Of a stretch of DNA of 12,312 bases, positions 1 through 12,312 are shown one piece after another (the first letter of the stretch is position 1; each line of letters starts with the position of its first letter). The translations under genes were made by a program, and so were the position numbers. The notes under the pieces are model-generated. The model was given only the letters and a program-made list of their open reading frames with translations, was not told the origin of the DNA and did no database searches. This stretch comes from Octopus sinensis (lineage: Eukaryota), in assembly GCF_006345805.1 (NCBI RefSeq), contig NW_021826620.1, forward strand, positions 1 to 12,312, written 5' to 3'.

Positions 1-102
1 GATAGATAGATAGATAGACAGAACGACAGACAGACAGGAGACAGACAGACGACAGATAGATAGATAGATAGTAGACAGACAGACAGACAGACAACAGATA
101 GA

Positions 103-146
<44 letters not shown>

Positions 147-159
147 TAGATAGATAGAC

Positions 160-220
<61 letters not shown>
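1..220. repeat. (GATA)n/(GACA)n tetranucleotide microsatellite
   Basis: Direct reading: near-continuous GATA/GACA units. Confidence 0.98.
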
Positions 221-221
<1 letters not shown>

Positions 222-237
222 CTTACTCAGATATGCC

Positions 238-259
238 TATGTATATATACATATATCCC

Positions 260-290
<31 letters not shown>

Positions 291-410
291 ATGTATGTAT
301 GTATGTATGTAAGTATGTATTTGCATATATCTGAATCTTCGTACATTTACATATGTTCCTATGAACGCATGCACAAAAACAAACACACACACACACACAC
401 ACACACATAC
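238..410. repeat. Compound (TA)n/(TG)n/(TATG)n/(CA)n microsatellites
   Basis: Direct reading; explains the three low-complexity ORFs at 237-482. Confidence 0.9.
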
Positions 411-1016
411 TTGCACACATCCGTATATATCCGCATGGAACATTACTTATACATGACACAACCCTCCCAAACAGTCATCTAATAATGATGATGTATTACC
501 CTCTTCATACCCGCAAAAACAGCCACCCAGCTAATGACAAACCTTTACGAACCACTCGAAACCTCCACCGCTTTTCCACTACCAATATCTCCACGCTCAC
601 GCTCTTCCCTCCACCGCAACTAAACCAGATTCAACCGTAATTCACCAGCATTAGCTTTTATAACATATACGTAATTACATATGCACAACTGTATTATTTT
701 AAAATATGCGCTAATACATACATACTTAGCATGTTTCTATGCTTATAAAATATTTAAGAATTTGCCATATGTTCATTATAAAGTAATTTAGCGCATAAAC
801 TAACTTTTAACGTGAACAATATGTGTCGACACCCACACAACTGAACTGAGGAGAGAGGCTTTTGGTAGCCGATTGACCCACTGGAAATAACAGTGAGGTC
901 CTACTCGAACTGGAATAAGAAGACTGGGTGAAGTGGGGTTTTGACGCAGAGGATTTTGCATGATTAACTGGACATTCAGTCTGTTTTGGCCACAGTAGTT
1001 TTAGGAGCTGGAGGTA

Positions 1017-1020
<4 letters not shown>

Positions 1021-1058
<38 letters not shown>

Positions 1059-1115
1059 CTCACTCTCTCTCACACACACACACACTCACACACACACACA
1101 CTCACACACACACAC
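1021..1115. repeat. (CT)n-(CA)n compound microsatellite
   Basis: Direct reading. Confidence 0.95.
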
Positions 1116-1159
1116 AGGAGGCGCGCAGAATATACACATAAAAATGGAAGGAGCGAGAG

Positions 1160-1297
1160 TTAGTTAGATAAATAGATAGATAGATAGATAGAAAGATACA
1201 GATAGATAGATTGATAGATAGATAATGAGATAGATAGGTAGACAGATAGATAGATAGAAAGATATAGATAGATCGATAGATATATAGATAGATAGAC

Positions 1298-1370
<73 letters not shown>
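1160..1370. repeat. (GATA)n microsatellite forming the 3' flank/tail of the minus-strand LINE copy
   Basis: GATA array abuts AGTTTCTTTATTGG at 1371. Confidence 0.97.
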
Positions 1371-1371
<1 letters not shown>

Positions 1372-1779
1372 GTTTCTTTATTGGCCACACAGGGCTGCAC
1401 ACAGATGGGACAAGTTACAAGGTAGAGCTTTTCTTTTGGGGGATGAAGAGAACAAAAAACAAAAGAAAAAAAAGGGGGGTGGCGTAGGTTTTCGATCAAG
1501 AGGGATCGTAAAAGGGAAGAAAAGAACAAAAACAAAAACAAAAAATTGAATAAAATAAAAAGAATAAAAAGAAAAAAAAAGAAAAGGAAAAGGAACAAAA
1601 AAGGAAAGAGAAATGAAAAAAAAAGAAGAAAAAAGGACGAAAAAAAAGGAAGAGGGAAAGGAAAAAAAAGAACGATCAATAGGGATCGTGTATCACAGTG
1701 TTATGATATATGGTGTAAAGGGGAAAGCAGTAAGGTTTATCCGTGGGAGAAAAGCACCTACGAAAAAGACACGGTAACC
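1371..1779 (-). mobile_element. Severely 5'-truncated Tx1/L1-type LINE copy (3'UTR only), embedded in a GATA array
   Basis: Reverse complement aligns to 3284-3539 (GGTTACCGTG...GATAAACCT...GATCCCTATTGATCG...CCAAAAGAAAAG...CAGCCCT...CCAATAAAGAAAC). AATAAA at 1377-1382 (-). Carries an extra ~155-nt T-rich expansion (1515-1670). Confidence 0.9.
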
Positions 1780-1803
1780 TAGATAGATATAAGATAGATA
1801 GAT

Positions 1804-1847
<44 letters not shown>

Positions 1848-1850
1848 GGG
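1780..1850. repeat. (GATA)n microsatellite between the two LINE copies
   Basis: Direct reading. Confidence 0.95.
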
Positions 1851-1879
1851 AGAGATAGAGAGAAATTACAGCTTATTAA

Positions 1880-3212
1880 TTGAACACGACACTGAAAGAC
1901 TACGAAGCGGTAACAGGAGCGAAAATCAACCGGGAAAAGTCAGTGAGAGAAGCAAATCCATGCCGTCCACTAGCGCCTCCGTCGTGGGACGCTGGACCGA
2001 CGGTCCGTTCGAGTTGCTCGGGGTCTGGTTTTGTACGGATCTCTAAACGGAGAACTAGAACGAGATAACGAGTAGGGTGGTCACTCTCGCCCGGCAATGG
2101 GCCGAGAGGAAGCTGTCCCTAAAAGGTCGGGCGGAGGTGGTGAACACGTACATCGCGTCCGTCATCTACTGCCGCCTGATCGTCGTGCCTTGTCTCGACC
2201 CTACCATCAACAAACTAGAACACATTCTCTTCCGCTTCTTGCGGAAAGGATGCGTTCCGATGGTCAGGCGATCCGTTTGCTGCCAACATCCGTTAAAAGG
2301 AGGGTTGGGTATGCTGTGGGTGATGATGCGCAGACACGCGCTGAGACTGCGATATTTCCGGCCCTACGTAGACGACGGTGAACAGCTGTGGTCGCCGTTT
2401 GTGAGGCACGCTTTCCCACAGCTCGTCTCCTTGACCGAACTGCAGTCGTAGATCAAAAAGAGGCAGAGGAAGGGCGAATGGCACCGCGAGTATTGCGTTG
2501 CTCTCAAGCAACCATGCCGTCCCGGGTCGAGCAACTATGCCGTCCTCTTGAGCGACTTCAACACAACCAAAGCATTCTAAAGGGGATTAGTGGAGGGGAG
2601 GTACGACGACGATCTCGGGGCGAACCTGGGCATCGATGAGAAATATCTGACCCGCATGTTCAAGACGACTTTCGGGCCGGGACCTATGGACAACTTCCAG
2701 AGATCCCTGGTCTGGTCTGGTAGTGCTATCGAGAAGCGCTACCCGTTCGGGATAAGCTCTACAGGCATGGCTCGAGAAACACGGGGCCGACCTGTCCGAG
2801 ATGCGGCCAGAGTGACGAAACCGTCCTGCACGCACTCGTACAGTGTCCAACCATTTCCGACCTGTGAGCCTATGTCGAACGACTGCTGTCACGTGGGGGA
2901 CGAGTCGGTTTATCAACCGAGTCTATCGTCAATATTGTCGCGCCTTCTTCCTTGAAACGGAAAGGAAGAGCCATTTTCATCGTACTTGTGGCTATGGCGA
3001 AAGAATGTCTATGGTGGACGCGTCTGAAAGGACTAGAGACAAACACTTTCCTCTCTGGTGAATCTCTCATCAACTTCTTCAAGTATCACTTGAAGAGGAA
3101 GGTGAGAGTAGAGAGGGAAGTTTTGTCTAGTGAATGTTTGAAAAAATGATGGGTGAATGTAGCAAGGATGGCACGTGTGAATGACAGAGCCACCTTGAGC
3201 ATAATCCTATGA
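1880..3212 (+). pseudogene. Disrupted LINE ORF2: RT C-terminus/thumb plus C-terminal CCHC zinc knuckle (zf-RVT-like)
   Basis: Hand translation gives YEAVTGAKINREKS, ELLGVWF, WAERKLSLKGRAEVVNTYIAS, LFRFL..HPLKGGLG and CPRCGQSDETVLHALVQC (C-x2-C-x8-H-x4-C, 2793-2846), all typical of L1/Tx1 ORF2. Frameshifts near 1945 and at a TCTGG duplication (2716-2720); several in-frame stops (e.g. 2449, 2578, 3147). Probable native stop TGA at 3210-3212. Confidence 0.9.
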
Positions 3213-3539
3213 ACCCCAAAAAAGAAGGGAAAGAAGAGTCACTTACTGTAATGCGTTTCCTTGCATGACATTATTGCCCCCGTGGTTACCGTGGTCTTTT
3301 CCATAGGCTTTTCTTTCCACAGATAAACCTAATCTGTTTCCCTTTTTACACTATGACATTTCTGTTATACATGATCCCTATTGATCGGCCTTTTTTTAAC
3401 GATTCCTTTTGATCGAATTTCTACCCCTCCATCTTTTCTTCGTTTTCTTTTTTTTTCCTTCTTCTCTTCCCCAAAAGAAAAGTTCTACTATGTATTTTGT
3501 TCCCTCTGCGTTCAGCCCTTTGTGACCAATAAAGAAACA
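1880..3539 (+). mobile_element. 5'-truncated non-LTR retrotransposon, L1 superfamily (Tx1-like)
   Basis: ORF2 remnant 1880-3212, 3'UTR 3213-3539, AATAAA at 3528-3533, then a (TATC)n tract. Confidence 0.9.
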
Positions 3540-3720
<181 letters not shown>

Positions 3721-3998
3721 CTTTCATTCTTACTTTTTTTTTCTTTCTGGGTTGTTCCCATAATTTAATAACCCTGCCTCATCACACTGACTCAGGTTGA
3801 TTCTACCTGAAAAGTGCATTTAAGATAAGCATCCTTGCGAAATACTCAACCACTCAAACAATGATTTCATAAATATGAAATCAAGTGGTCGAAAAACCTA
3901 AATGCTCATCATTGAGAATGACGGAGAACCCCTCTCCTCCCCACAGTCTCCATTTTCTTTCAATATGTGAAATATATATAAATAGCACAAAACATTTT

Positions 3999-4005
3999 TG
4001 CTGCT

Positions 4006-4039
<34 letters not shown>

Positions 4040-4130
4040 CTGTTGTTGTTGTTATTGTCGTAATAGTTGTTGTTGTTGTTGTTATTGTTGTTGTTGTTGC
4101 TGCTGTCGTTGTTGTTATTGTTTTTGTTTT
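3999..4130. repeat. (TGT/TGC)n trinucleotide microsatellite
   Basis: Direct reading; source of the poly-Cys ORF. Confidence 0.95.
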
Positions 4131-4511
4131 GTTTAATTTATTCTAGAGAAGAAAAAATTCTCAGGTTTGATGCTATTGTTAAAAAGTGAGTAGGCAGTGT
4201 TTTCCTCTGTAGCACTTCCGGTAAAATTTCTTCTTAAAAGAAACGTTTTTGTTCTAGCTGGCATTAGTGCCATTTCGTTGGAACCGTCTGTCTAACCTAA
4301 CTATTTTCGTTCATCTCCACCTTCCTTGCCGTATTTATGGTTCGGAAGCGAATGCTTCTTGCTGCGAGACTCGGAGAACTGTGCGACGTAATGGAGGAAA
4401 TATAAGCACGCGCTCTTTTGCAGTGATGTTTAATAAATGCTAAAGTTGGGCTGTGAAGGGAAATTTATTTCTGGCTGACAGTAACAAAGAGAACTCGCCA
4501 GACGGTGGCGG

Positions 4512-4576
4512 CACCACCACCACCACCATCAGCAACAAGAACAAGAACAACAACAGCAACAGCAGCAGCAGTAGCA
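4512..4576. repeat. Compound CAC/CAA/CAG trinucleotide repeat
   Basis: Direct reading. Confidence 0.85.
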
Positions 4577-5624
4577 GACAAGAAGCATCTGCCACGTGTA
4601 CACTTCATTTATGTGCAAAGATTTATCTAACAATTATGATAGAAAAAATAGATAGGGAAGAGAGAAGTGATGAAATTATTAAAGAATTCCAAAAAGAAAA
4701 ACAGAATGGGTGGAACATAAAAAAAAGGAAGAAAAGAAGGAGGGAAGAAAGAAAGAAGGAAGGAAAGAATGGCAACTATAGAAAATGAAGGTTGAGTAAG
4801 AGAAGAAAGATAATGTGAATGAAAAGTAATTGAGGAGAAACAAAATGGAAAGAAACGAATAGAGACGCGAAGAAATATACCAAGGTGTAGTTCAAGAAGA
4901 AGAAATAAGGAAATAATTGTGGAAAAAAAGAGAAGAGGAAGGAGAGACAGAAATGAAGCTGAGCCAAAATAAGAAACAAAAATTAAAGAAAGAAAAATTT
5001 GACAAAAGTAGTGACTAAAGAATTTAAGAAAAGAATGAAATGAAGAATTTATGAATGGGTTAAAGAATTTAAAAAACGGTTAATATAAAAGAGTGTTAAG
5101 AAATTATTATAAGAGATTTGAAGAAAGAAGCAAAAGTACAAAGAGCGAAAAAATAATTTTAGGAATATTACAAGGAATGGTAAACTCCAAAGAAATATAA
5201 AAAGAAACTGTTTTTTTGCTTTGTTTTGTTGTTGTTTTACACTCGGCCCCTTCCTTTTTCAGGTGTCTTTGAGATTGATTTGAAGAAAAAAGGAAGATAT
5301 CTTCAGACAAGAAGAATGTTGAACAGAATTAAGTTCTATTAAAGACATTCAAGAACGAGACGGTGCTATCAAGCCTCCCATCATTTCCTCGTCTGCGCAA
5401 AAGACTGTAGGTCCCACGCAGAACTAAAAACCCACGTTCAAGTTTCAGTCGTCATGCAGATAAGTCGGTCAACCTGTTGGCTGATCTATCGTAGAGCGAT
5501 AGATCGACCTATAGGTGTGTGTGTGTGTGTATTTAGAGAGATTTCACAAAAATACAAAAGACGAAGACAGATGGTGTAGACAACAAACAGATGTATTAGT
5601 TTAACGCTCGAGAAGTAAAAAAGT

Positions 5625-5660
5625 CTTTAACATTTCGAGCCTACGCTCTTCCACAGGAAG
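5625..5660 (-). ncRNA. Degenerate minimal hammerhead-like motif (family A)
   Basis: CUUC-CUGUGGA-A-GAGC(GUAG)GCUC-GAAA-UG-UU-AAAG; non-canonical core. Confidence 0.45.
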
Positions 5661-6173
5661 GAACACAGAAAGAAACAAGGAAAGAAAATAAAGAATGTGA
5701 AGGTGTGAAAATGTGGTTCTGGGAAGTGGTCAGTGCGGGTGTGTGCGTGGTGATGTGTTGTGATATGATGTGTTGTGTGGCATGGTGGTGTATGATGTAG
5801 TGGTGCGTGGCGTGGTGTAATGGTGTTGGGAGGTGGGGAAGCGGGGAAGCGGGTGAGGTGGTGGGAGGCGAGTGTGTGGAAAGCAAGGGTGGGGTGTGGG
5901 TTAGGCTGAGGGTGGGGGTAGAGGTGTGGTATATGGAAGTGGGTGTAAGGTATAGGGTGGGGTGGGGTGGGGAAGGATAGGGAAAGTGGAATGTGTAGGG
6001 ATGGGGTGGGCTTACGATGGAGGGTTGACGATGAAGGAGGGAAGGAGAAAGTGGGTTGGAGTGAAGAGAAGAGAGGAAAGTAGGAGTGAAGAGAAGAAGA
6101 ATGAGTCGGGGCAAGAGAGGAGAGGTAGGTGGGAGGAAGTAGGTGTGAGGGGAAGAGAGGCGAGGGGAGGAGG

Positions 6174-6306
6174 TTAGATGAAGAGGAGAGGAGAGTTGAG
6201 CCCATGTGGCGCAAAGAAGCGAAGAGAGACGATTGATCCATCCCTGTTCACGGCGCAAACGGGAGTCCTGATAGCCCCTGTGCAAGGACAATCCGAACAC
6301 GGACAG
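6174..6306 (-). pseudogene. C-terminal fragment of a Penelope GIY-YIG endonuclease
   Basis: LSVFGLSLHRGYQDSRLRREQGWI, then (after a 4-nt AATC insertion) VSLRFFAPHGLNSPLLFI*. Matches the R..RE..WI..L....P.GLN end motif of PLE ORFs. Confidence 0.8.
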
Positions 6307-6310
6307 TGGG

Positions 6311-6585
6311 GTACAAAATAGTACCAACATTGCTAGAAACAAGAGTAAAACAACGACTCAATTAGCCACAAAAAGCACTTAGCTTAATAAGCTGTCGAAA
6401 GAGAGGGAGGGAGCGAGAAAGCTACGTACCGTAGTGATAAAAGGCTCACAAGTGAAGAAGCAGATATATCCATATCACGTGATTTCAAACACTGATCTTA
6501 GTTCTCGTCAGTGTATCTTACTGCGCCTAGGCTTAAGCACATTACCTGCAGGTTTTAATTGCTAATGGATCACCTACATTATATT
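6311..6585 (-). mobile_element. Probable Penelope-type terminal repeat fragment (second family) carrying a hammerhead ribozyme
   Basis: Non-coding segment between a TA tract and the truncated GIY-YIG ORF; contains the motif at 6468-6516. Confidence 0.55.
6468..6516 (-). ncRNA. Type I hammerhead ribozyme with palindromic helix III (family B)
   Basis: AUACA-CUGACGA-GAAC(UAAGAUCAGU)GUUU-GAAA-UCACGUGA-UA^-UGGAU. Canonical core, palindrome AUCACGUGAU, one helix I mismatch. Confidence 0.75.
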
Positions 6586-6650
6586 TATGTATATATATAT
6601 ATATATATATAGATATATATATATATATATATAATATATATAGATATATA
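6586..6650. repeat. (TA)n microsatellite
   Basis: Direct reading. Confidence 0.95.
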
Positions 6651-6833
6651 TTAGACAAAATTGAGATAACAAAGCTAAGGCTGTGAGGAGTTTTCAGATT
6701 TATAAGAGATATATAGTCTTACAGCTGTTTCTGTGATATTATGGATATCCCTTTATCATAGACGATGTGAGATGGTTAAATAGAGGTAAATATTTGAGAT
6801 CCACTGTTTGGGTCTTCTAGATACCAACGCCTC

Positions 6834-6835
<2 letters not shown>
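6651..6835 (-). mobile_element. Probable Penelope-type terminal repeat fragment (third family) with a decayed hammerhead
   Basis: Unique segment between TA and TG tracts; contains the motif at 6716-6763. Confidence 0.5.
6716..6763 (-). ncRNA. Decayed type I hammerhead with palindromic helix III (family C)
   Basis: GUCU-AUGAUAA-A-GGGAUAU(CCAUA)AUAUCAC-A-GAAA-CAGCUG-UA^-AGAC. Helix I perfect, palindrome ACAGCUGU, core has two changes from CUGAUGA. Confidence 0.6.
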
Positions 6836-6875
<40 letters not shown>

Positions 6876-6918
6876 ATATATATACACACATATATACATA
6901 TATGTATATATATATATG
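6836..6918. repeat. (TG)n/(TA)n microsatellites
   Basis: Direct reading. Confidence 0.93.
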
Positions 6919-6920
6919 CT

Positions 6921-7168
6921 ATGATAGATCGTTAGCCACTACACACATTTTTCTCTCTCCTTTTTTCTCTCCCTTTTCCTCCTTGTTTCTCTCCTTGTTT
7001 TTTTTCTCCTTGTTTCTCTCGTTTTTTTTTCTGTGTCCCTTTCTATAGAAGAGCGTAGGCTCGAAACGTAAAAGACTTTTTCTATTCCTGAGCGTTATAC
7101 TAATACGTCTGTTTATTTTGTACACCACCTGTCTTCGTCTTTTGTTTATTTCGTAAACTCTCCCTATA
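6921..7168 (+). mobile_element. Short Penelope-derived repeat (family A), copy 2
   Basis: Near-identical to 9680-9868 and homologous to the reverse complement of 5531-5700. Hammerhead-like motif at 7039-7074; ends CTCCC(TA)n. Confidence 0.8.
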
Positions 7169-7332
7169 TATATAATATACATATATGTATATATGTGTGT
7201 ATATATATATGCAAAAACACATACATGCAGACATACACACACATACGCGCGCACATATTAGTTACAACGATTCAATATAAACTAGGCACTGCAATATGGA
7301 GGATGTTGCCCCAGTCCAATGAGCTTGCAAAA

Positions 7333-8415
<1,083 letters not shown>

Positions 8416-8820
8416 AGTAACCTACACCCATTCACTCATACGTTCACAACCTCACACATTCATTAACACACATTAACCAAGATTCTTCAGAATGTTATGT
8501 TTACTAAAGATCTCATTCTCAACATACAAACTCGTAGACCAATTTTTCTTGCCATCAAACAAACCAATGAAAATATCTCGCTGCCATAAAAATAATCCAG
8601 CAGAAAATGAAAAAACTGCTCCGTTAATGAGAATATCTTATACTTTTATGGTCGCCATTGATTTTATTACACTCCGAAGTTTGCCGAAGCTTGACGAGAA
8701 TTGACGAGGCTTGCTAAGGTTTATTTGTATTTGCAACGGTGAGCAAAGTTTGTGTATGCGTTATGGGGAAACTTGGATATTTTCTGTTTGCGTTGTTAGG
8801 CCTTCTGTTATACGTAAACA

Positions 8821-8940
8821 CGTGTGTGTGCGTGTGTATGTGTGTGTGTGTGAGTGTGTGTGCGTGTGTGTGTGTGAATGTGTGTGTGTATGTGTGTGTG
8901 TAGAGAGAGAATGAGAGAGAGTGAGAGAGAGAGAGAGATA
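8821..8940. repeat. (TG)n-(GA)n compound microsatellite
   Basis: Direct reading. Confidence 0.95.
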
Positions 8941-9000
8941 CGCGTATAAGTGTGAATCGATGCCTGCATACGTTCCCCTATGTTTATTCATTTGCTAAAG

Positions 9001-9022
9001 TATATATACTTATGTATATTTA

Positions 9023-9075
<53 letters not shown>

Positions 9076-9089
9076 TATATATATATTAC

Positions 9090-9129
<40 letters not shown>

Positions 9130-9149
9130 ATATATATATATATTGTATA

Positions 9150-9180
<31 letters not shown>

Positions 9181-9251
9181 GTATATATAGATATTTTATT
9201 ACATATATATATATGTATATATATGTAGATGTATATATATATGTATATGTA

Positions 9252-9292
<41 letters not shown>
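9001..9292. repeat. Long interrupted (TA)n tract
   Basis: Direct reading; source of the YI-repeat ORFs. Confidence 0.97.
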
Positions 9293-9296
<4 letters not shown>

Positions 9297-9372
9297 CCTC
9301 TGCTCATATAAACTTAAATACCTGTGTATTTGCATCTTTACTTTTCTGTGTTTGCGTGTAGACAGAACAGGG

Positions 9373-9437
9373 TGAGAGAGAGAGAGAAAGAGAGAGAAAG
9401 ATAAATAGACAGATAGAGAGAGAGAGAGAGAAAGAGA
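9373..9437. repeat. (GA)n-rich tract
   Basis: Direct reading. Confidence 0.9.
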
Positions 9438-9679
9438 TGGAGTGGGATCAGTATTTTCCTTTCATCGTTGTTTAAAAAAAGTCCGAGCAGTATTTTACAC
9501 ACGTGTAAAACATCGTAAAGGAAAGTTTAAACTATCGTTGGAACGGCAATACTTGCAATTTTTCAGTGGGTAAATCTTTACAACTGGTTATCTAAGTATA
9601 TTTGAAGTTTGAATACTCCTTAAAGATTTAAATGTTTTGAATGGTTCTTCCAATTGTGTACCTGCATGAATCAGTCGGC

Positions 9680-9868
9680 ATGATAGATCGTTAGCCACTA
9701 CACACATTTTTTTTCTCTCCTTGTTTCTCTCCTTGTTTTTTCTGTGTCCCTTTCTGTAGAAGAGCGTAGACTCGAAACGTAAAAGACTTTTTCTATTCCT
9801 GAACGTTATACTAATACATCTGTTTATTTTGTACACCACCTGTCTTCGTCTTTTGTAAACTCTCCCTA
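9680..9868 (+). mobile_element. Short Penelope-derived repeat (family A), copy 3
   Basis: Same start (ATGATAGATCGTTAGCCACTAC) and end (CTCCCTATA) as 6921-7168. Hammerhead-like motif at 9750-9785. Confidence 0.8.
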
Positions 9869-9875
9869 TATATAT

Positions 9876-9990
9876 GTTGGCCTGCTCGCTTAGCCAGCGG
9901 GGTGGCGTCATTTGAAGGCTAAAACAATGCGAAGTGCATTATGACCAGCGATGTGTAGCAACATCTGATAGCCTGGTCGGTCAGGGTGAT
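9876..9990 (+). mobile_element. Probable SINE 3' fragment
   Basis: GC-richer island between two TA tracts; resembles an octopus interspersed repeat from memory only. Confidence 0.45.
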
Positions 9991-10219
9991 ATATATATAT
10001 ATATATATAAATGTGTGTGTGCCTCTGTGTATCTATGTCTGTGAGTGCCTGCATGCCTTTTTGAAAGTATATTTGGTTGTACATTCATCGGAAGTACAAG
10101 CAAAGCAGTATAGGGTCGTTCGATCTGATAATACATAACAGCCAAATTGCCCTTGAAGATGTAAGAATCCATGAAATTTCATGAAATTTCAGGTAATTGA
10201 ATTCTAGGTACACTATATT

Positions 10220-10590
10220 AAATAATATTAATGCATCTCTGATCACGCGCAGGGTTAGTGGGGGGGGGGCACCATAGCCATGCTTTGAGAGGAATTCTTC
10301 TTTGAGGTTTCAATAATTCATCTCTTGGAATATTGGTGTTTCGCTCATCGTCGTTAAACAATTCTTATTCAGGATTCTTTTGAGCGAGATGAGCAACTCG
10401 ACCTGAAGTAAATTCTGATTGGACTCTACCTGCAAGGTCATGCGCTAATTATCTTGAAATGAGATCACCATGTCGCGCACATGTAAGTTGTGATACATGT
10501 GTCAGTCGGGAAATCATGAGGGGTATATTGGGCTCGTGTATATTTGTACCCCAGTGTCATTTTGATGGCATGCACTGCGCTCCTACTCAC
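10220..10590 (+). mobile_element. Probable interspersed retroposon 3' fragment
   Basis: Abruptly truncates the left unit of the tandem array at ~10590; resembles an octopus repeat from memory. Class uncertain. Confidence 0.4.
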
Positions 10591-10863
10591 ACCGATGAAC
10601 CTAAACGATGTACGAACTCTTGTTAATAGGAATCAGTGCACAAATTATTTCCTGATGGATGTTGATATCTGTCGAACTGATAATTCTTGAGGTACAAGTA
10701 AAGCAGCGACAATCTAAACAAAAGCGTATCCGTTCATTCTTTATCCGTTCTGGTAGATACGAAAATGAACATGCTCATATTTGTAGTTATTCATCAACGG
10801 AGAACACCTCCTCCGTAAAGATGATGTATATCCATAACATGCTCGATTTACCGGTGTAAGGGG

Positions 10864-10916
10864 ACTTTCAGACACGACACTGTTTCGACCTTATTGCGTG
10901 TCTCCTCGGTGAAAGC
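10864..10916 (-). ncRNA. Type I hammerhead ribozyme (family D), copy 1
   Basis: GCUUUCA-CCGAGGA-GAC(ACGCAAUAAG)GUC-GAAA-CA(GUGUCG)UG-UC^-UGAAAGU. All three helices present, GUC cleavage triplet, single core change U4C. Confidence 0.75.
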
Positions 10917-11187
10917 TACCGTGCGGAAGCGGTGAATCTAACAAGAGCACGAGTTGTTGTTTATAGAAAGGAAAAAAAATATCATTTGTTGAGTCATACT
11001 GATGTCTTCTAAACAGGTGGTAATTCATGATGTGCATGCAGAAACAATAACGTTTCTATTCATTCTTAAAATGCTCAGGCAGATTCGAACGTGAATATAC
11101 TGGTTGCTATTGTAATACGTCATCTGACAACACTTTCTCCATTCAGTTGATATGTGTTCGTAGTACGCGATTCACCAGTGTAAGGGG

Positions 11188-11240
11188 ACTTTAAGACTCT
11201 GCGATGTTTCGACCTTGTTTTGTGTTTTCTCAGTCAAAGC
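11188..11240 (-). ncRNA. Type I hammerhead ribozyme (family D), copy 2, decayed
   Basis: GCUUUGA-CUGAGAA-AAC(ACAAAACAAG)GUC-GAAA-CA(UCGCAG)AG-UC^-UUAAAGU. Helix I kept by a double substitution; G8A and G10.1A changes. Confidence 0.62.
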
Positions 11241-11789
11241 TACCGTGTCGGAACGATGAATCTTACAAGACTACAAGCTGTTGTTTATAGAATTCAAGAA
11301 ACTATTTGCTGATACACGCTGATGTCCGCCAAACATATAATAATTCATGAGGTGTGTGCGGAACAGCGAGAATCTAAACAATAATGTTTCTGTTCATTCT
11401 CAATATGATCGTAATGTTTCTTAGAAAATTCTACATTACTATAATCAACGAGTTAACTTCCAGTAAGTTAATCTCGTCTAGTTAAACATCACTCACAATA
11501 GACATAAAAGCAATCAGTGAGTTGTATCAATCTGATGCAACCAGGTAAATTTTATTATTCAAGGAAGCAGATTATGCACACAGCTTTTGTTTTTTACAAT
11601 GGAAGAAGACTTACCGATTTAATGTAATTTGAATTTTAAATTTTAAGTATTATGTCCTAGATTGAATATTATCTTTGTACTTATCAACAGCCAAACATAG
11701 AAATAGATGTAATCAAGAATATTTTCATCCATTTATTGCTTGTTTCGTGTTTATACGGTCAACCGACCATAGAGACATATAAACAGACA

Positions 11790-11837
11790 CTAACATACGT
11801 ACACGCATATACACACATACACACATACATACACACA

Positions 11838-11911
<74 letters not shown>

Positions 11912-11945
11912 GTACATTCATACATATATATATAAAGATATATAG
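11790..11945. repeat. Compound (CATA)/(CA)/(TA)/(GA) microsatellites
   Basis: Direct reading. Confidence 0.92.
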
Positions 11946-11947
11946 AT

Positions 11948-12137
11948 ATTTCATTATTGCTCACAGGGGACTAAATATAGAGGAGACAAACAAAGACAGA
12001 CAAAGGGTCTAAGTCGATTACACCGACCCCAGTGCGTAAATGGTACTTATTTAATCGACCCCGACAGAACGTAACGGCAGACGAAATACCGCTAAGCATT
12101 TCGCCCGGCGTACTAATGTTTCTGCCAGCTCGCTGCG
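11948..12137 (-). mobile_element. tRNA-derived SINE with an internal deletion and a LINE-like 3' tail
   Basis: Minus strand: head GCAGCGAGCTGGCAGAAAC (A-box-like), body TCGGGGTCGATTAAATAAGTACCA...CTGGGGTCG, tail ...CCCCTGTGAGCAATAATGAAAT. No B-box visible (junction ~12065). Family recognition is partly from memory of octopus SINEs. Confidence 0.75.
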
Positions 12138-12139
12138 TT

Positions 12140-12240
12140 TATATATATACTATATATATATATATATATACACCCACACACCCACACGCACACACACACA
12201 TATATATATATATTATATATAATATTATATATATATATAT
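12140..12240. repeat. (TA)n/(CA)n microsatellites
   Basis: Direct reading. Confidence 0.93.
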
Positions 12241-12242
12241 CT

Positions 12243-12312
12243 ACACGCCGGGCTTTTTGCCTTTCCGGGTACCCCAAATCCGCTCACAAAAGCTTTGGTC
12301 GGCCCGAGGCTA
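12243..12312 (-). mobile_element. SINE fragment cut by the window edge
   Basis: CCAAATCCGCTCACAAAAGCTTTGGTCGGCCCGAGGCTA resembles an abundant octopus tRNA-SINE body (memory-based). Confidence 0.55.

Follow-up and report, generated by a model that had tools for sequence, protein, structure and literature searches.

The window analysed here is the whole stretch of 12,312 nucleotides from Octopus sinensis (contig NW_021826620.1, positions 1 to 12,312). Towards its right end lies a tandem array that adjoins the 3' part of a very abundant repeat:

10350..10589, plus strand: 3' part of a SINE-like very-high-copy repeat, adjoining the array; its start probably lies further to the left; read depth up to 1.65 million
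10591..11413, minus strand: diverged, non-coding tandem array of about 2.5 units of 320–337 nt; the hammerhead sense runs from 11413 down to 10591
10591..10745, minus strand: partial third unit, ending about 20 nt before the expected start of a third hammerhead

A blastn self-comparison aligned 11042–11410 with 10716–11076 at 69.7% identity (E 4e-42), and 10611–10740 with 11272–11400 (E 1e-10), the latter match being the partial third unit. The homology extends from about 10591–10593 on the left to about 11413 on the right, and the two ends of the array fall at differing phases of the unit. The top ungapped diagonal of the array is at 324 nt, and the remaining segments are offset by 320–337 nt. 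In global alignments the two full units share 74.1% identity over 355 columns (JC 0.32), and the third unit shares 68.6% (JC 0.41) and 73.0% (JC 0.34) with them. Assuming that the units were identical at insertion, the drift per unit amounts to JC 0.16–0.20. The first-pass annotation of this DNA had described about 2.5 diverged head-to-tail units of about 324 nt with no consistent ORF, and had regarded them as an old copy. The self-match and global alignment bear out this description of the units, no stop-to-stop ORF of at least 70 aa lies inside the array, and the JC values of 0.32–0.41 between units fit the suggested age. Furthermore, when 5 short ORFs in or beside the array, taken from a list of 36 with a length of at least 30 aa, were compared with Pfam, no family was hit, and on these two grounds we rejected a protein-coding repeat as the identity of the unit. 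Scans for target-site duplications of 5–7 nt (exact) and 8–12 nt (with one mismatch) recovered none in the ranges covered, the general repeat scans brought up nothing conspicuously LTR-like, and no tRNA gene was found within the window.

The window is dense in microsatellites (GATA, TA, CA, TGT and CAG/CAA), with 84 rows in the output of Tandem Repeats Finder, among which the array is absent. Rfam microRNA matches on these microsatellites were all under the gathering score. The segments at about 11950–12140 and at 12245–12312, which lie between microsatellites, resemble what we take to be common octopus SINEs, and the repeats flanking the array presumably also resemble SINEs of octopuses. A broken Tc1/mariner-type transposase remnant is present at 7323–7995 on the plus strand (match to the Sleeping Beauty transposase, E 2.5e-4). 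It also matches a protein of Octopus bimaculoides, the best of 4 hits for the transposase-like ORF (68%, E 5e-31), in keeping with an octopod host. The Tc1-like remnant is enclosed by a 148-nt direct repeat (6998–7145 and 9709–9856, 95% identical and 2711 nt apart), whose copies could be LTR-like ends or two instances of a small repeat. A GC-rich, frameshifted coding remnant at about 1880–3220 on the plus strand, three pieces of which matched 0 Pfam families, fell with unnamed eukaryotic clusters of the ESM Atlas at 0.96–0.97 and with an RVT_1 cluster at only 0.84; it resembles the C-terminal portion of ORF2 from a LINE of the L1/Tx1 type.

Hammerhead motifs within the units

The minus strand of the array contains the following elements:

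10864..10916, minus strand: type I hammerhead copy 1, with a 7-bp helix I, U4C (10908), GAAA and GUC; predicted cleavage after 10871
11188..11240, minus strand: type I hammerhead copy 2, with a 7-bp helix I, G8A (11228), G10.1A (11226) and a helix III mismatch (11198); predicted cleavage after 11195
10871..11194, minus strand: predicted monomer between the cleavage sites, 324 nt, GC 39.8%

These motifs were delineated with a descriptor for the type I hammerhead, applied to both strands with one mismatch permitted in the core and a helix I of at least 7 bp. In the whole window it matched only 10909..10871 and 11233..11195 on the minus strand, which are 324 nt apart and supply one motif per complete unit; a strict descriptor with no core mismatch gave 0 matches in the window. 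When the array was subjected to 3000 dinucleotide shuffles, 0 passed the setting for copy 1, 3 the setting for both copies and 15 a looser setting, the settings having been picked after the motif had been seen. Thus, the earlier claim of two minus-strand hammerheads exactly 324 nt apart is upheld by the descriptor and by the rarity of equivalent matches in shuffled sequence (0–3 of 3000). The Rfam search that the first-pass annotation had proposed came out negative, with no hammerhead family at E up to 5 for the window or up to 10 for 10500–11500.

In copy 1, helix II consists of 3 bp with a 10-nt loop and helix III of 3 bp with a 6-nt loop, and all 13 of its 13 helix pairs are valid, in agreement with its original description as a motif with a 7-bp helix I, helices II and III, a GUC triplet and U4C as its only defect. 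The G8A change that had been noted in copy 2 was also recovered, but the damage to this copy had been understated, in that G10.1A disrupts the pair that closes helix II, an A.A mismatch is present in helix III, and only 11 of 13 helix pairs are valid. The retention of C3 alongside G8A removes the C3-G8 pair in copy 2. Both U4C and G8A impair hammerhead cleavage, and going by the sequences the two hammerheads in the window are probably inactive; the locus would yield no monomer, because a monomer needs cleavage at both sites. Given that C3 is kept, the A8 of copy 2 does not represent the compensated U3-A8 variant described for Schistosoma Penelope-like elements (PLEs) in PMC4209133. Counting C3, U4, G5, A6, G8, A9, G10.1, G12-A14, A15.1 and U16.1 in both copies, 3 of 24 core sites are changed, which is not below the 15% expected from decay. 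The hammerhead region as a whole is somewhat more conserved between the two copies than the remainder of the unit (78/95 versus 185/260 positions, Fisher p 0.04). As regards the loop I–loop II tertiary contact that the first-pass annotation had suggested, a bulge lacking purines and a loop 2 rich in A are present.

Folding predictions further suggested an outer stem beyond helix I:

10930..10938, minus strand: 5' arm of the outer stem of copy 1, from RNAalifold on the two copies and pairing probabilities; the equivalent in copy 2 is 11254–11262
10845..10853, minus strand: 3' arm of the same stem, from RNAalifold and probabilities; the equivalent in copy 2 is 11169–11177; it overlaps the ACCG/ACUG of the first-pass annotation

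This outer stem, which comprises 4 + 4 pairs, is the one preferred, with a probability of 0.94–0.96 in copy 1 and 0.65–0.83 in copy 2. The distal CGGU/ACCG stem that had been suggested earlier can be drawn, but its pairing probability is 0.0 in both copies. It could nevertheless form, since 10920 and 10921, the first two letters of this stem, are changed in 3 and 2 related contigs of one DNA-type run (X1, see below), and these changes could preserve pairing. Helices II and III received probabilities of 0.00–0.06 in both copies and in majority-like mosaics, in energy models applied with no known hammerhead as a control, and the 5' strand of helix II paired instead with the GUC of the cleavage site. 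Such energy models leave out tertiary contacts and magnesium. The 324-nt monomer, taken as the decayed copy, has a circular minimum free energy of −57.2 kcal/mol (z +0.99 versus 100 shuffles), which corresponds to no extra folding.

Related copies in the genome

Contigs of four public runs from four studies were compared with the window at 80% likeness or more, namely the DNA-type runs X1 and X2, which are labelled as two organisms, and X15 and X24, which are guessed to be RNA. Single-copy depth is 53.5 and 39.7 in the two DNA-type runs. The locus itself is found on one contig per run, with 2 differences in 1098 nt in X1 and 6 in 1101 nt in X2; the X1 contig is possibly the source of the window.

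At the core sites broken in the window (U4, G8 and G10.1), 16–28 other contigs carry the canonical letter, making up 67–78% of the depth in X1 and X2. U4 (10908) is restored in 962/1304 of the depth in X1 (19 contigs) and 647/960 in X2 (16 contigs), and G8 (11228) in 1456/1925 (26 contigs) and 1158/1485 (28 contigs), respectively. Similarly, G10.1 (11226) is restored in 1397/1925 (25 contigs) and 1120/1485 (26 contigs), and the third pair of helix III (11198) in 1178/1436 (23 contigs) and 823/906 (20 contigs). With the locus itself excluded, the sites of U4, G8 and G10.1 still have 20–30% of their depth without the canonical letter. Positions at which one copy in the window differs from the majority mostly show, as the majority letter, the one found in the other copy: among the rows listed (40 of 63), the commonest other letter is that of copy 2 at 10877, 10879, 10897, 10908, 10911 and 10932, and that of copy 1 at 11198, 11220, 11226 and 11228. 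At 10880 the commonest other letter is a third one, with 42% of the depth. The family majority is accordingly a canonical CUGAGGA / GAAA / GUC hammerhead. The ancestor reconstructed in the first-pass annotation from the two damaged copies had the same form, and as the majority letters are canonical at all broken sites, this reconstruction corresponds to what most related copies carry. The check that had been recommended on the genome-wide consensus was run with the X1 and X2 contigs and came out in favour of a canonical core, with U4, G8, G10.1 and the helix III pair all restored. The alignment of the units also confirmed the double change from C-G to G.U that had been observed to keep pairing in helix I. 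In minus-strand letters, most related copies read G at 10911 and C at 11193, with position 10869, the partner of 10911, outside the rows listed; together with C-G in copy 1 and G.U in copy 2, a single position of helix I shows G-C, C-G and G.U.

Hammerhead depth relative to the locus contig is 27x and 37x in X1, and 26x and 34x in X2, and the whole period is covered at 8x or more, the lowest bin of the unit standing at 8x single copy (X1). Summed depth is not a copy number, and copies less than 80% alike are invisible to the comparison; with this in view, the depths and the contig counts together point to tens of family copies at 80% identity or above, not thousands. The two longest related contigs listed (1142 and 1203 nt) are at single-copy depth and occur in both DNA-type runs. 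Related contigs span the cleavage site, with a depth of 1451 at 11193 and of 1436 at 11198, which is expected for multimers. Some contigs contain joints that go back to an earlier part of the unit, and a switch from one window unit to the other accounts for these just as well. We read the group as an old, mostly dead family. In X15 a few contigs cover hammerhead copy 2 at a depth of 18.9, of which 13.1 comes from 2 contigs that have G8; they may be DNA or pre-mRNA, contigs of this kind giving no readout of strand, level or circle. Copy 1 has no cover in X15 and neither hammerhead has any in X24, blanks that are uninformative on expression.

One part of the unit is distinguished by a much greater depth:

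11053..11096, strand not assigned: 44-nt block of the unit; depth 5790 and 3939 in X1 and X2, about 100x single copy

This block is about 3 times commoner in the genome than the hammerhead. In X24, contigs match only 11053–11096 and then continue into unrelated sequence on both sides. In each DNA-type run, one contig changes strand here, with 11096 joined to 11403 of the opposite strand, a pattern also seen in inverted insertions of PLEs. The block may be an element that a more distant subfamily has kept, or else the end of a PLE. The repeat at 10350–10589 is present at about 31,000x single-copy depth and is well covered in both guessed-RNA runs. Its other copies run into (AAT)n at 10582–10589, and here the array begins instead. 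A bias of PLE insertion towards microsatellites has been reported (PMC8557442), and an insertion of the array into the microsatellite tail would fit this bias; the reverse order is also possible.

The hammerhead pattern was also sought in metagenome contigs, where one scan gave 7 loci and another 0, with 0 in viral contigs. The 7 loci were rejected as chance matches, given that 0 of 7 had a CUGANGA in the 40 nt upstream or any likeness outside the pattern itself.

Origin and mobilisation of the family

Non-LTR retrozymes are known from mussels, corals and amphibians, and those of metazoans were described by Cervera and de la Pena in 2020 (PMC7229834). The nearest system is the 350–390-bp repeat of Mytilus galloprovincialis, to which the octopus repeat is likened by the features of its unit, not by sequence. 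Like those retrozymes, it is a dispersed molluscan repeat whose non-coding units, each a few hundred bases long, are arranged head-to-tail, with GC under 45% and one type I hammerhead per unit. The period of 320–337 nt lies within the 150–450 bp range of non-LTR retrozymes, the GC content is low (under 45–50%) and the units are non-coding; at the level of the family, the hammerhead is canonical and the copies are multiple and dispersed (16–28 contigs per site). The retrozyme reading of the first-pass annotation therefore gains support, a 324-nt unit with GC of 39.8% and no ORF being in keeping with PMC7229834. Unlike the retrozymes described there, both hammerheads at the octopus locus carry core changes, and the family has tens of visible copies, compared with about 5000 hammerheads for mussel and, for coral, 1508 of the canonical type. 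Likewise, published retrozyme circles are highly self-paired, in contrast to the z of the decayed octopus monomer given above. The mussel family, in the same account, is devoid of the archetypal contact bases between loops 1 and 2.

A preprint by Li, Clavereau and Pollet (2026; bioRxiv 10.64898/2026.07.22.740005) proposes that retrozymes derive from PLEs as non-autonomous elements that arose from their pseudo-LTRs (pLTRs). The octopus unit is near its averages of 313–342 bp for insects, amphibians and coral, and the few units per array also agree with it, 75% of families there having no more than 7 and small families occurring. Its 'active' class consists of two consecutive complete hammerheads detected by Tandem Repeats Finder and rnabob, and the octopus locus falls outside this class, each of its two copies having a core change and Tandem Repeats Finder having missed the array. 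Of the 9 Xenopus elements predicted in that study, only 1 showed cleavage, which calls for caution with the octopus family, and the sampling covered 31 vertebrates, 3 insects and 1 coral, with no mollusc.

Given that the motifs are intact in most related copies, the locus is likely a dead retrozyme insertion. We consider it likely that the array as a whole is a decayed insertion of a non-LTR retrozyme, belonging to a dispersed non-coding family that has a canonical type I hammerhead as its majority form and was mobilised by a Penelope-type machinery; the family is probably both derived from and mobilised by Penelope elements. In the corresponding scheme, the minus strand of an ancestral copy would have been transcribed as a multimer, each hammerhead would have cleaved after its GUC (11195 and 10871) to release a 324-nt monomer, and a host ligase would have circularised the monomers. 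A Penelope-type reverse transcriptase might then have copied round the circle or along a multimer, producing more than two units, and the multimer would have been inserted at the (AAT)n tail of the SINE-like repeat, after which the units presumably decayed with no selection on the core. In Octopus vulgaris, PLE families are present and a Penelope/LINE expansion is placed at JC of about 0.2 (PMC13282606). The per-unit JC of 0.16–0.20 may put the array close to this expansion.

A different reading, with a small but real chance of being correct, takes the unit to be the pLTR of a Penelope-like element that was autonomous, and the array to be a truncated, partially tandem insertion that lost its ORF, whose hammerhead would have served to release the full-length element RNA instead of a small circle. 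In its favour, pLTRs of PLEs are described as carrying type I hammerheads and as forming partial tandems and inverted copies; one related locus here switches strand within the unit (11096 to 11403), and the array begins where a microsatellite tail would be. The nearness of the per-unit distance to the O. vulgaris PLE expansion speaks for it too, as does the finding that 21 of 57 retrozyme-family matches in Xenopus were to the termini of PLEs (24 families had matches to 22 TEs, of which 21 are PLEs). Metazoan PLE hammerheads are mostly minimal, with 7–8 bp in helix II, 4–5 bp in helix I, an extra base before helix II (9/10.1) and helix III absent or palindromic (PMC4209133). The octopus motif shares with these pLTR hammerheads the type I topology, the tandem or inverted arrangement and, in the majority, the G10.1-C11.1 closing pair. 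However, it differs from this minimal architecture in having 7 bp in helix I, 3 bp each in helices II and III and no extra base. Moreover, no reverse transcriptase/endonuclease ORF adjoins the array, nor was any remnant of a PLE ORF found beside it (0 Pfam families for the 5 short ORFs). Since the preprint proposes a pLTR origin for retrozymes generally, the retrozyme and pLTR readings differ mainly in whether there is an ORF-bearing parent.

That a single SINE-like monomer with a hammerhead was inserted and then duplicated locally by unequal crossing-over, in which case the tandem form would be uninformative on circles and on rolling-circle copying, appears improbable. Tandem arrays can grow locally (bioRxiv 10.64898/2026.07.22.740005), and the joints at other loci fit switching between window units. 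Against this, the three units are roughly equidistant (JC 0.32, 0.34 and 0.41), as would be expected of units that arose together, the two ends of the array differ in phase, and related contigs cover the full period at 8x or more. Finally, a chance resemblance to a hammerhead in an ordinary repeat, to which the lack of an Rfam match and of a three-helix fold in the folding models might point, is scarcely credible in view of the shuffles (0–3 of 3000) and of independent copies that restore exactly the letters required by the hammerhead model.

We found no report of a cephalopod hammerhead repeat in the searched literature, a scope distinct from subscription papers, supplements and repeat libraries, and the earlier suggestion that the family is possibly undescribed in this lineage holds within that scope. 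The consulted parts of PMC10886601, PMC11662667, PMC5680766 and 10.1101/2021.04.23.441226 contain no such repeat, and the words 'ribozyme' and 'hammerhead' occur 0 times in the main text of the O. vulgaris study PMC13282606. The family may already be in Repbase or Dfam under another name.

With the array read as a decayed non-LTR retrozyme, the locus itself is most likely inert. The significance of the finding is modest; a class of animal retroelements that is already well described would gain a cephalopod host. As decayed families escape both Tandem Repeats Finder and Rfam, such families are missed by current surveys. The octopus family also offers a non-vertebrate test of the Penelope pLTR origin of retrozymes, which the 2026 preprint lists as untested. 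More speculatively, and in our view doubtfully, octopods might hold an undescribed retrozyme lineage with a younger branch, less than 80% alike and sharing the 44-nt block, that would be active, give rise to circRNA and have an identifiable Penelope partner. Were this the case, cephalopods would have their first demonstrated family of self-cleaving RNAs, and the idea that retrozymes originate from pLTRs could be tested on it beyond the vertebrates.
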